Below, one piece after another: positions 13,966 through 17,971 of a DNA stretch of 64,000 nt (positions within the stretch are counted from its first letter, which is position 1; every line of letters starts with the position of its first letter). The translations under genes and the position numbers were made by a program. The stretch is from Candidatus Freyarchaeum deiterrae (lineage in GTDB: Archaea; Asgardarchaeota; Jordiarchaeia; Jordiarchaeales; Jordiarchaeaceae), in assembly GCA_037305845.1 (NCBI GenBank), contig CP147778.1, forward strand, positions 2,176,001-2,240,000, read 5' to 3'. Below the pieces are notes generated by a model. That model had not been told where the DNA came from and ran no database searches. It worked only from the letters and a program-made list of their open reading frames with translations.

Positions 13966-14127
13966 TTACCCCGTTCCTTTGCAAACGGGACAGATGACCT
14001 TACCAGTACCCCAGCAAGTCTTGCATATTGTCTTCGAGTAAGGGTCAGTTACACCAAGCCCTCCACATGTTCCGCATGCTATTTTTCCAGTTCCTTTGCA
14101 TTTTGGACATTTTGCCTTTCCAGCCAA
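13966..14127 (-). CDS. 53-aa DnaJ-type (CXXCXGXG)4 zinc-finger microprotein, copy 1
   Basis: MAGKAKCPKCKGTGKIACGTCGGLGVTDPYSKTICKTCWGTGKVICPVCKGTG; TTG start after GAGGA; not in ORF track. Confidence 0.85.
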   Translation of the reverse strand: MAGKAKCPKCKGTGKIACGTCGGLGVTDPYSKTICKTCWGTGKVICPVCKGTG

Positions 14128-14297: not shown

Positions 14298-14459
14298 TTA
14301 CCCCGTTCCTTTGCAAACGGGACAGATGACCTTACCAGTACCCCCGCAAGTCTTGCATATTGTTTTCGAGTGAGGGTCAGTTACACCAAGCCCTTTACAT
14401 GTTGCGCATGCTATTTTTCCGGTTCCCATGCATTTTGGACATTTTTCCAATCCAGACAA
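14298..14459 (-). CDS. 53-aa DnaJ-type zinc-finger microprotein, copy 2
   Basis: MSGLEKCPKCMGTGKIACATCKGLGVTDPHSKTICKTCGGTGKVICPVCKGTG. Confidence 0.85.
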   Translation of the reverse strand: MSGLEKCPKCMGTGKIACATCKGLGVTDPHSKTICKTCGGTGKVICPVCKGTG

Positions 14460-14523
14460 TACATATTCCTCTCAATTTTTTAGGATACTAAGCAATGTAC
14501 TGCATTATAGCGGTTTATATTAC

Positions 14524-15757
14524 TTACTTCATCCCTTTGGCTGATACGATTCTAATAATATCTCTGTCCTTTAGTTCCGCGTTCTCAGATAACCTGATCC
14601 TCTTTCTGGCATCTTCTGCGTAGATGAAGGTTTCACCGAGGTCGGTGTGTACTGCGTAGGCTAGTTCTTTTGCTGTTGTTCCTTTTGGTACTAGGTATAC
14701 GTCGGGTAGAACGTTTCCGTTGTGGTCGCTGTATTTGTTCGCGTCTTCGACTGGATATACTGCGATCATGTTGAGTACTCCGAAAACCATTTGGTTGAGG
14801 GTTTCCTGTATTCCCGTGGAGCCGTATTTGCTTAGTATTTCTTCGCGTATTTTTTCTAAAACTGGTTTCTGGTTCTGGGGTATTTTGTCCGGTTTTAAGA
14901 TCTTAAATTCGGAGTCGCCGGGTCTGTATTCAATCGCTCCATCTTCTGCTAGTTTTCTGAGCATGTATTCTGCGAGTGAGCTTGCTGGTACGACTTTTCC
15001 TTTTTTCTTGAGTTTTTCTAGGTTTTGTACTGATGTTTTTCGGTCTATTTTGTTTGCGCATATCAGCATTGGTTTTGAAGCTTTTTGCAGTTCTCGTGAA
15101 AAATTGTATATTTGGTCATCGTTCCAGGCTTTGGGTTTTTCCGGGTCGAGTTTTGCGTTTTGTAAAGCTTTTTTGATGTGGGCTCTCTTTATTGCTAATC
15201 CCGATAATCTGTCTATAAGGAGTTCATCTAGCTTCCCTTTGGATGTATCTACTTCCCTAGCTATCTTTGGCCATTCACGTGTTATTATCTGTTTGAACCA
15301 CATTGCGATTTCTTTTTCAAGAAAGTCTACTTCCTCCTCCGGGTTTCCTGTTCCTGGTTCGATAGGTTTCCCCTCGAGGTCTGTGGCTCCTGATGCGTCA
15401 ACTACCTGTATTAATGCGTCGGCGCGTCGAAGGTCGTCCAGAAATTGGTTTCCTAATCCGCGTCCCTGCCAAGCGTCGGGCACCAGTCCTGCGACGTCGA
15501 GCAAGTTTACTGGTATGTAGCGTATGCCATCTACGCATATGGAGTTTTTGCAATTGTCTTTCACTCCGAGTTCTTTGCATACGCAATCTATTCGAACATA
15601 GCCCGTTCCTTGTTGGGCGTTTATTGTTGTAAAGGGATAGTCCGCTACCTTGTATTCTGTTAGGCAAGCCGCGTTCAGAAAAGTGGTTTATCGGTCCAAT
15701 GCACTATTTCGTGCGTTGGATTCCCGAATTAGGCTTACCTACAATTCCCACCAACAT
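14524..15757 (-). CDS. ychF: Obg-family YchF/OLA1-like NTPase, intron-split: join(15757..15721,15689..14524), 400 aa
   Basis: Exon 1 MLVGIVGKPNSG plus exon 2 KTTFLNAA...YPFTT...DVAGL...NKID...TGS domain. Confidence 0.9.
15690..15720 (-). other. Putative 31-nt mRNA intron with relaxed BHB motif
   Basis: Removal restores GKPNSGKTT; insert is a hairpin (CCAACGCAC/GUGCAUUGG) flanked by CGGG/ACCG and 3-nt bulges. Confidence 0.8.
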
Positions 15758-15974
15758 TTTCCATCACTTTTGACCAATTTTGTTTTTCCTACCTAAATAA
15801 CTTTGTCCTCATTACATTCATGCACTGAGAAAAATGTTTTACTAAACCAGTTTAAGGTCTTTAATGCTCCAGGCTTTCTAAATTTTTTGATGATGAATTT
15901 GAGCAAAATTAGAATTTAAATGGTGTAAAATGGGCTGACCGGTTGATAGAGCTTTTTATTCTTTTTGCCCCTTT

Positions 15975-16286
15975 TTATCGGTACTCTCTTTCGAGGTGTC
16001 CCCAGGTAACTTTACTTCCGAAGGATCTTAAACCGTTTTCTTTAAGTTGTTTGAGAATGTTGTCTGCGTGCTCCTGGGCGATTTCTCCTCTTTTCAGCAT
16101 GTAGTTAATTATTTCGATGACTTGTTCTTCATTGTCGCATCTTCTGATTACTCTAATTATGTCTAAATCGCGGGTCTCTTCGCTTCTTACTCCTTCTATG
16201 GGAGCAGCCATTTCCACCCCTTCCCCTTCCAATTCCTTGGATAGGTTGGGGTATTCTTCACGAAGTTTTTTCTTATCGATTTCCAT
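15975..16286 (-). CDS. DUF2095-family protein
   Basis: YPNLSKEL, IRRCDNEEQVIEIINY, GLRSFGSK. Confidence 0.75.
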   Translation of the reverse strand: MEIDKKKLREEYPNLSKELEGEGVEMAAPIEGVRSEETRDLDIIRVIRRCDNEEQVIEIINYMLKRGEIAQEHADNILKQLKENGLRSFGSKVTWGHLEREYR

Positions 16287-16339
16287 TGCCCATTCCCAAT
16301 CAAAACTTCACGTAGCGCTATAAAAAATGTTTTGTAACA

Positions 16340-17971
16340 CTAGTTACATTTTAACCCACATTTAGAACATTTTATACCGCATGGTGGCGTCATCCTTCCC
16401 TCATAAGCATTGTCTCTTTCTGCTAGAAGAAACTCCCTATTAACTCCGATATCTACTATATCCCACGGATATACCGCTTCAGGGTTTCTCTCGGTACCTA
16501 CAACCTCTCCAATAGAGATTTTGGTTTCCTTTAAAGCACGTCTCCAAGCTCCTAAGCCTCCTCCATATAAGGAGGATAACTCAATAGGCTTCCCAATGCT
16601 ATTATCCCCGAGGGAGAGAAGCGCTTCTATCACGCCCCATCTAGGATCATAACCCTCAATACTAATTCTAGGATTTCTTCCCAATTTTGAGGAAATGAAC
16701 TTTAATTCCCTTCTAAAATATTCTATGGGCGGCTGCGGTTCCCACATAAAAGGCGTGTGCGGTTTTGGAACAAAGGGATTGATACTTAACCTAATACCTT
16801 GGGAGGGGAAACCCAGAGAGCCGATGCGGCTGGCTAGATTCACTATACCCTCTACGTCAAGCTGTTCTTCAGTTGGTAAACCCAGAATAAAATACATCTT
16901 AAGGTTTTGAAGTCTCTCCCGGATCATCTCTGCTGCAGAAAAAACCTGATCATTGCTAAAGCCTTTGTTTTGCGCTTCTCTTAATCTATCGGTCCCCGCT
17001 TCTGGTGCCAATGTTGCGGTTCTCTGACCTCCCTTGGCTAGAGCCTCCAATAACTCCTCCGAAACATTATCCACACGAAGGCTGGAGACCGAAAGCTCCA
17101 AACCCGAATTAACGATACTCCAGCAAAGATTAACCAAATCCTTATATCCGGAAAGACAAGGCGCTATGAGAGTAACCTTCCTAACACCGGAACGCTCAAC
17201 TCCTTCCTCAATGGTTGACAGCGCGGTTTTCATGCTGAGATTTCGCATGGGTCTGCTTGCGTATCCTGTCAAACAAAACCTGCACCCCCACTCGCAACCC
17301 CTAGAAATCTCTAAAAGAAGAGTTTTTCCAAAAACTGGCATCAAAGGACTATTAGTGTCTACCTGCGGAACCACTTGGGTTACTGGTCGATAAGCTTCCT
17401 CAAGATTTTTGCAGCAGCTTCTTTTTACAGGCTCCTTAGAAAATCTGGGAACATAGATGCCGGGCAGCTCAGAGAGCGTTTCAAGGTTTTCCCGGGAAAG
17501 ATTTCCCTCAATATATGTGTCTAGCAAATCATCAAGTACTGGTTCGGCATCGCCTAAAAGAAAGAGGTCAACATATTCAGAAAGGGGTTTAGGGTTTTCC
17601 AAGGCGCAAGGACCACCAGCAATTATCAGAGGATGATTAACCCCCCGCTCTTTAGAACGGATTGGGATACCTGCATTTGAGATCATTCTTAAAACATTTG
17701 TATAATCTGTTTCGAATTGAAGCGAAAAACCTATTATATCAAAATTGTCTAGAGGTTGCCTTGACTCAACGGAAAAGGCAGGAGTTTGTCGAGAATTGAA
17801 TACTCTTTCGCAAGCCACATCTGGGCGAGTATTAAGCATAGCATAAAGTGTGTGAATTCCTAAACAAGACATGCCTACCTGATACCCGCTAGGGTAGGCT
17901 AGAGCAAACCTGATGTCTACTTTCCTAAAATCCTTTCTAATAGTATTAATTTCCGAAATACTGTCTTTCAA
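16340..17971 (-). CDS. Radical SAM protein (TIGR03960-like, B12-binding-like N-terminus)
   Basis: RGCEWGCRFC, APEAGT, FVPKPHTPF, C-terminal Cys cluster. Confidence 0.85.
   Translation of the reverse strand: MKDSISEINTIRKDFRKVDIRFALAYPSGYQVGMSCLGIHTLYAMLNTRPDVACERVFNSRQTPAFSVESRQPLDNFDIIGFSLQFETDYTNVLRMISNAGIPIRSKERGVNHPLIIAGGPCALENPKPLSEYVDLFLLGDAEPVLDDLLDTYIEGNLSRENLETLSELPGIYVPRFSKEPVKRSCCKNLEEAYRPVTQVVPQVDTNSPLMPVFGKTLLLEISRGCEWGCRFCLTGYASRPMRNLSMKTALSTIEEGVERSGVRKVTLIAPCLSGYKDLVNLCWSIVNSGLELSVSSLRVDNVSEELLEALAKGGQRTATLAPEAGTDRLREAQNKGFSNDQVFSAAEMIRERLQNLKMYFILGLPTEEQLDVEGIVNLASRIGSLGFPSQGIRLSINPFVPKPHTPFMWEPQPPIEYFRRELKFISSKLGRNPRISIEGYDPRWGVIEALLSLGDNSIGKPIELSSLYGGGLGAWRRALKETKISIGEVVGTERNPEAVYPWDIVDIGVNREFLLAERDNAYEGRMTPPCGIKCSKCGLKCN

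Follow-up and report, generated by a model that had tools for sequence, protein, structure and literature searches.

In Crenarchaeota, the cbf5 pre-mRNA carries within its coding sequence an intron of the tRNA type (Watanabe 2002; Yoshinari 2006; Yokobori 2009, PMC2738675), with splicing shown both by cDNA and in vitro. Haloferax volcanii similarly possesses a bulge-helix-bulge (BHB) intron, processed by the splicing endonuclease EndA, in the 5' untranslated region of HVO_1309. Within the literature searched, the coverage of which is without most subscription journals, these are the only archaeal mRNA BHB introns described (PMC2738675, PMC7714728), with PMC2738675 (2009) noting as well that further mRNA introns had been predicted. 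Considered here is a 31-nt insert in a YchF-related gene (ychF, its product hereafter ‘the GTPase’) of the soil Asgard archaeon Candidatus Freyarchaeum deiterrae (SRVP Freyarchaeota). The gene lies in a 64,000-nt stretch of contig CP147778.1, positions 2,176,001 to 2,240,000, which is ‘the window’ in whose coordinates positions are given. The insert interrupts the Walker A lysine codon, and very probably the GTPase mRNA is spliced there, by EndA and the ligase RtcB, in a 31-nt register. In the literature just described, the sole other archaeal coding sequence with a documented EndA-type mRNA intron is that of cbf5.

The GTPase intron works like that of cbf5, that is, as a tRNA-type intron in a coding mRNA, though in a different gene and phylum and here within a set of 16 or more mRNA introns that are predicted (those of cbf5, kae1, rtcB, alba, and pcm among them). 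Splicing has been demonstrated for crenarchaeal cbf5 whereas it is predicted for the GTPase, which in addition has a better-pairing unproductive register. The HVO_1309 intron likewise is EndA-processed and in an mRNA, but it sits outside of the reading frame and is associated with a narrow-specificity enzyme type, whereas the GTPase intron must be removed to the base. Non-canonical tRNA introns have been described from Freyarchaeia and Atabeyarchaeia (PMC11291895; bioRxiv 10.64898/2026.10.13.758758), word searches of the two sources turning up discussion of tRNA introns only. With these the GTPase intron has in common its genome, its BHB geometry, a length in the same class (mostly 19-34 nt), one tolerated central mismatch, and the lack of a close copy elsewhere, but it differs in its mRNA host, its 2-bp outer helix, and its want of a tRNA scaffold. 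In eukaryotes, the HAC1 and XBP1 mRNAs similarly contain a short, frame-shifting intron that is cut by an endonuclease, IRE1, and sealed by a tRNA ligase (RtcB in animals). There, however, the nuclease is dedicated and stress-regulated and acts upon two stem-loops, as opposed to EndA and a BHB, so the likeness is one of analogy only.

The gene is read on the minus strand and consists of the following:

15721..15757, minus strand: exon 1, codons M1 to G12 and the opening A of the Walker A codon for Lys13
15690..15720, minus strand: putative 31-nt BHB intron, the unique restoring deletion
15719-15711 with 15704-15696, minus strand: stem of the intron hairpin, with loop 15710-15705 and an in-frame TAG at 15706-15704
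14524..15689, minus strand: exon 2, the final two A of Lys13 and T14 to the stop, with PFTT, DVAG, and NKID motifs and a TGS domain

The ATG at 15757 encodes MLVGIVGKPNSG, followed by IQRTK and then the TAG inside the insert, so that unspliced RNA has 17 codons before a stop. Among deletions scanned between 15740 and 15670, only that of 15720..15690 yields both GKPNSGKT and a 400-aa protein, the remaining open products losing PNSG. Translation of other junctions gives, for a 33-nt excision, a frameshifted 108-aa peptide and, for mixed 32-nt cuts, just 16 aa. A preliminary description of this DNA had proposed the same split lysine codon, the same rebuilt product, and a hairpin insert with two possible registers, all of which a re-reading of the sequence bears out.

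The insert is real, that is, neither an assembly artefact nor the result of chance. The host genome was manually curated, with long reads used to check its topology (PMC11291895), and in Logan four separate assemblies or runs of the strain are 100% identical to the window, all with the insert. Nor is it plausible as chance, since homologous inserts of 30-32 nt occupy the same site in nine sequence variants while in relatives, of which 29 loci in GTDB genomes were read (five from the same genus), the G-x4-G-K is uninterrupted and the insert absent. A genome search for further family members found only this one copy of the gene, i.e., no second intact copy elsewhere. The closest match to the intron elsewhere in the genome has 9 mismatches over 31 nt, and its flanks lack direct repeats that would permit slippage. 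An Rfam search of 14400-16400 gave no match at E<=1, and a group I or II self-splicing intron is ruled out as well by size, 31 nt versus a catalytic core of hundreds of bases.

The homologous inserts came from contigs reached via homologues which databases list as N-terminally short, and they sit at the same base, in hosts down to 80% amino-acid identity. The nine variants, of 30, 31, or 32 nt, cover all three frames and each holds a stop or frameshift, with the 30-nt variant in frame but ending in a stop. Insert ends are invariant in all aligned variants, and so are two synonymous third positions of the exon which, where the intron is absent, vary freely among relatives. By contrast the stem-loop is variable, with two pairs changed on both sides; the intron-side helix has 8 of 9 pairs, 89% of cells being paired across variants. 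On the exon side, the outer helix consists solely of two invariant U-A pairs. The comparison with relatives that the preliminary description had called for thus gives homologous inserts in some orthologues and an uninterrupted P-loop in the others.

Relative to intron-bearing orthologues dN/dS is approximately 0.05-0.11, with exon 1 changes limited to synonymous or V/I substitutions, and purifying selection acts on exon 1 as it does on T14-F16. By this evidence from sequence the gene is alive and its exon 1 is translated. The gene tree, its backbone weakly resolved, needs two changes of intron state, and a single clade of intron bearers is rejected (p-AU 0.02, with the same caution over the backbone). 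As the inserts are homologous, the simplest reading is one gain, most likely within the Freyarchaeia genus, with later losses. Stops seen in the distant genomes G027 and G037 were considered as introns and rejected, as these are terminal, and a degenerate, phylum-wide pattern for inserts was too loose to use.

How the intron might be recognized comes down to two overlapping registers, along with a possible distal helix:

15720..15726, minus strand: productive register, 5' side, CGGG (15726-15723) and bulge AA^U (15722-15720), invariant in all aligned variants
15687..15695, minus strand: productive register, 3' side, ACCG (15695-15692) and bulge AU^A (15691-15689), with outer pairs 15688-15687 with 15727-15728
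15688..15727, minus strand: slipped register, UCGG (15727-15724) with CCGA (15694-15691), bulges GA^A and UA^A, and a 1-bp outer helix; the predicted minimum-energy fold, excising 33 nt and breaking the frame
15661..15741, minus strand: possible distal exon-exon helix in the predicted fold, 15741-15732 with 15670-15661, 10 bp

The productive central helix consists of three G-C pairs plus a terminal G.A (position 4; 15695), and cuts after the second base of both of its 3-nt bulges remove precisely those 31 nt whose loss restores Lys13. A perfect 4-bp central helix, as a strict BHB has, is absent both here and from seven of the eight aligned variants, with only the L036 clade possessing one; by sequence the intron is therefore a relaxed rather than a strict BHB, just as had been described at the outset. 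In that one clade an A-to-C change supplies a G-C pair at 15695, and the productive register is favoured by 2.5 kcal/mol. The better pairing of the slipped register, together with its frame-breaking 33-nt excision, also was anticipated by the preliminary description and is recovered in the predicted folds. The distal helix could, in the folding model, hold the exons together, though it is mostly codon-dictated and is partly present in intron-less relatives.

Elsewhere in the genome, alternative registers with four central pairs and a long intron stem are found at three other predicted mRNA introns, and there the outer helix of the productive register is of equal or greater length than that of its competitor, so outer-helix length may serve as a tie-breaker between registers. 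A single mismatch in the central helix is seen in 10 of the 39 well-formed tRNA introns listed for the genome. Of these 39, 34 begin the 3' bulge with A and 2 with U, which favours the productive register. Composition of the whole bulge was tried as a discriminator and rejected, overall likelihoods being about equal.

The enzymes for such splicing are encoded. The genome has two EndA paralogues, an alpha with a catalytic His and the CSL/L1 loop, and a second that lacks the His and which from its sequence reads as a beta subunit. The nearest match of the alpha is the catalytic subunit of Aeropyrum pernix (E 8e-43). In the alpha the crenarchaeal loop is retained, its K66 aligning with K44 of Aeropyrum. 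That loop confers cleavage of relaxed motifs (PMC3241643) and already was known from Asgard EndA (PMC5829648). The preliminary description had both asked after the EndA architecture of this genome and supposed that a broad-specificity endonuclease would be needed, and an alpha plus a beta subunit, the former with its broad-specificity loop, is in keeping with that supposition. There is one rtcB gene, and its product, RtcB, is required for tRNA splicing. The rtcB gene itself is interrupted by a predicted intron that has a G.A in this genome and a G-C in five relatives, at the same helix position as the G.A and G-C alternation of ychF. As RtcB is needed for tRNA splicing, and as its own intron contains the mismatch, the host enzyme should tolerate G.A.

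What a spliced product would look like is seen in sequences from a relative. Contig L067 (SRR28530383) has the insert, and contigs L047 and L048 (SRR28530379 and SRR28530378, respectively) match it at each of the 2,971 bases compared, minus exactly 31 nt, with the junction that of the productive register. If these intron-less ‘twins’ derive from RNA sequencing then they are direct evidence of splicing; if from DNA, then they represent an allele that lost or gained the insert precisely, at those same boundaries. An RNA origin is favoured by a second gene. Logan contains both an uninterrupted RtcB (P0071, 485 aa) and an interrupted one (P0072) with identical exon 2, on contigs differing by 29 nt, which is the length of the rtcB intron in this genome, and the full-length P0071 exists although each of the 6 genomes read has that intron and the close cluster representatives, 22 in number, all are short at the N terminus. 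We consider an RNA origin of the intron-less twins to be reasonably likely. Their contigs and L067 also share, at positions 1-26, a common start that does not align to relative L034 and which possibly is where an insertion element upstream of the gene terminates. A 33-nt junction was absent from the loci examined and from two collections scanned, only the 31-nt junction being seen, with the proviso that assemblers hide minor forms.

Splicing would, then, proceed as follows. The end of exon 1 would pair with the end of the intron, forming a four-pair central helix between two 3-nt bulges. An (alpha-beta)2 splicing endonuclease would cut after the second base of each bulge, and RtcB would join the exons, so rebuilding the Walker A lysine codon and with it the 400-aa GTPase. 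The intron presumably is kept because it is spliceable and because its position, in an invariant codon, permits exact loss only. Cleavage by EndA, the choice of register, and the RNA origin of the twins are what we infer, and a number of points weigh against them. Of eight variants folded, seven give the slipped register an advantage of some 3.7 kcal/mol in predicted stability. Bulge composition is no bar to that register, as U at the first 3' bulge position is found also in kae1, and covariation is modest, 23 of 500 shuffles among these related sequences being equally high, and does not separate the registers. As to the twins, no paper or supplement searched names the runs SRR28530378 and SRR28530379; the contigs cross the intergenic DNA upstream and begin, to the base, where the intron-bearing contig does, which fits DNA as well; and they are from a relative (88% amino-acid identity) rather than from this strain.

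The stability of the slipped register invites the idea that both registers are cut in the cell, with their ratio a regulated brake on GTPase output, which would add to EndA/RtcB splicing rather than replace it. Consistent with such a brake, the slipped register forms a helix-bulge-helix free of mismatches and is the predicted minimum-energy fold in those same seven variants, and a regulatory role has been proposed for the cbf5 intron (PMC2738675). The L036 clade prefers the productive register, however, the intron is absent from many relatives, alternative registers exist at other introns of the genome, and only the 31-nt junction is seen in the loci and collections searched, so a brake seems doubtful. 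The suggestion of the preliminary description that competing registers tune splicing accordingly goes unsupported, as the slipped register is favoured in most variants but loses in one clade. Handling of the insert at the level of DNA, i.e., a mixture of alleles with and without it in which the intron-less contigs supply the working gene, would agree with otherwise identical contigs differing by 31 nt in one accession series and with close relatives that lack the insert. Yet direct repeats do not flank the insert, all four assemblies of the strain have it, an exact-loss allele leaves the conserved BHB ends of nine variants unexplained, and even were the twin DNA its boundaries would be those of the productive register. 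Such mixed alleles are thus very improbable.

It also could be that no splicing occurs, the ribosome instead hopping the insert (translational bypassing) or else an internal start giving rise to a lysine-less protein. Databases do annotate shortened forms, of 384, 391, or 346 aa. In phage T4 gene 60, a gene that is bypassed, a stop codon lies inside a hairpin, as it does here. Against this, the junction is within a codon, matched codons for take-off and landing are lacking, insert lengths fall in all three frames, selection acts upon the sequence to either side of the insert (exon 1 and T14-F16), and the intron-less twin matches the BHB cut sites exactly, all of which renders an unspliced solution highly improbable. 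Least credible, indeed barely so, is a pseudogene with a neutral insertion, or instead an assembly error. YchF-family genes can be deleted in model organisms (PMC11237923), but the insert is identical in four separate sequencing runs, the genome was curated manually and had its topology verified by long reads (PMC11291895), and its homologues are in orthologues of as little as 80% identity that have intact frames and low dN/dS.

The GTPase intron does not appear to be alone. The whole genome was scanned for BHB motifs that, once removed, would leave two reading frames joined, giving 14 strict candidates versus 0-1 in controls with a 1-2 nt shift of the excised length. Versions of this census lacking the bulge filter exceed the shifted controls only slightly, or do not exceed them, for most classes. 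The strict filter misses kae1 and multi-intron genes, and since it requires an A at first bulge positions its output is unusable as evidence for an A there. The strict set plus ychF, rtcB, and kae1, minus one doubtful strict hit, come to at least 16 predicted mRNA introns, which is a lower bound; ychF, kae1, and rtcB were compared with relatives. These other candidates include (window coordinates, or those of the genome contig G000:C1):

27715..27742, minus strand: kae1 intron, 28 nt, canonical BHB (GPGL|GPCL); four genomes of the same genus have 29-nt homologues at this site
G000:C1:1452824-1452796 (locus L060), minus strand: rtcB intron, 29 nt, LPD|AHQGYGF, with the G.A mismatch; 30-nt, stop-containing versions in five same-genus genomes
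G000:C1:1483446, minus strand: cbf5 intron, 32 nt, BHB, at the Asp codon of GHSGTLDP, from the census; a position known from Crenarchaeota
G000:C1 1125569+, 1472189-, 1589381-, 1619887+, 1863944+, 1876927-: further strict census candidates, 28-34 nt (alba and pcm included)
G000:C1 2244134+, 2285374+, 2434719-, 2458220+, 2494680+, 2636190-: the same, continued

The mRNA of the ligase would itself, by this list, need RtcB ligase for its own maturation. With ARAGORN just 17 tRNA genes are found in the genome, many of them mis-called, a low yield that is explained by most tRNA genes carrying non-canonical introns. Taken as a whole, it is likely that Freyarchaeia routinely splice many housekeeping mRNAs, RtcB's included, using tRNA endonuclease and ligase, with the correct though weaker-pairing register chosen in the case of ychF. 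A 59-nt intron B of a RuBisCO-like gene (G000:C1:2174580-2174638, minus strand, locus L075) has AATTCGGGA, CGCAC, and AGTGCA ordered as in the ychF exon end and intron, a statistically weak resemblance. Common ancestry of the two is at most a possibility, as the local score is reached by 0.8% of random windows and by 13 of 2,978 hairpin windows, which is weak given the number of introns.

As to the identity of the gene, it matches the PRK09602/YGR210-like archaeal family (NF007171) at 527 bits, versus a cut-off of 387, and its product has the Pfam domains PF01926 and PF08438 along with TGS. The G4 motif is NKID, from which the YchF-related product is probably a GTPase. The YchF/OLA1 equivalog (TIGR00092) is rejected, as a full-length relative scores 96 bits versus a cut-off of 279 and an ATP-type G4 is absent, and a TIGR00092 profile search of the genome returns nothing over cut-off. 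The initial label of ‘ychF/OLA1’ thus holds insofar as the family is YchF-related but not in the sense of OLA1 or YchF proper. Of 301 genomes searched in the phylum, 263 have a PRK09602 match above cut-off, and among the 150 best matches listed only that of this genome starts as late as model position 16, i.e., past the P-loop lysine. Nine fairly complete genomes of the distant family f9 (G098, G108, G140, G182, G197, G203, G227, G248, and G251) give no strong match, and there the gene may be lost, unassembled, or interrupted.

Around the gene, a AAAGTTATTTAGGT motif at 15791-15805 (minus strand), about 40 nt upstream of the ATG and common to L047 and L067, resembles an archaeal BRE/TATA promoter; a sigma-70 scan is uninformative, the host being an archaeon. 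Following the GTPase gene are two tandem, 53-aa, CxxCxGxG zinc-finger-like open reading frames (14298-14459 and 13966-14127, minus strand), which are 85-91% identical in DNA over 167 nt, and one such called gene is present in relatives L034, L035, and L068.

Because the wrong choice of register breaks the frame, and because natural G.A and G-C variants exist, the GTPase intron offers a clean test of how EndA chooses between overlapping motifs. The mRNA introns would explain as well why databases list Freyarchaeia proteins as truncated. If splicing occurs as proposed, then an Asgard clade, i.e., from among the relatives of the eukaryotic host cell, possesses introns in catalytic codons of many core genes, which would mean that mRNA introns can spread without a spliceosome.
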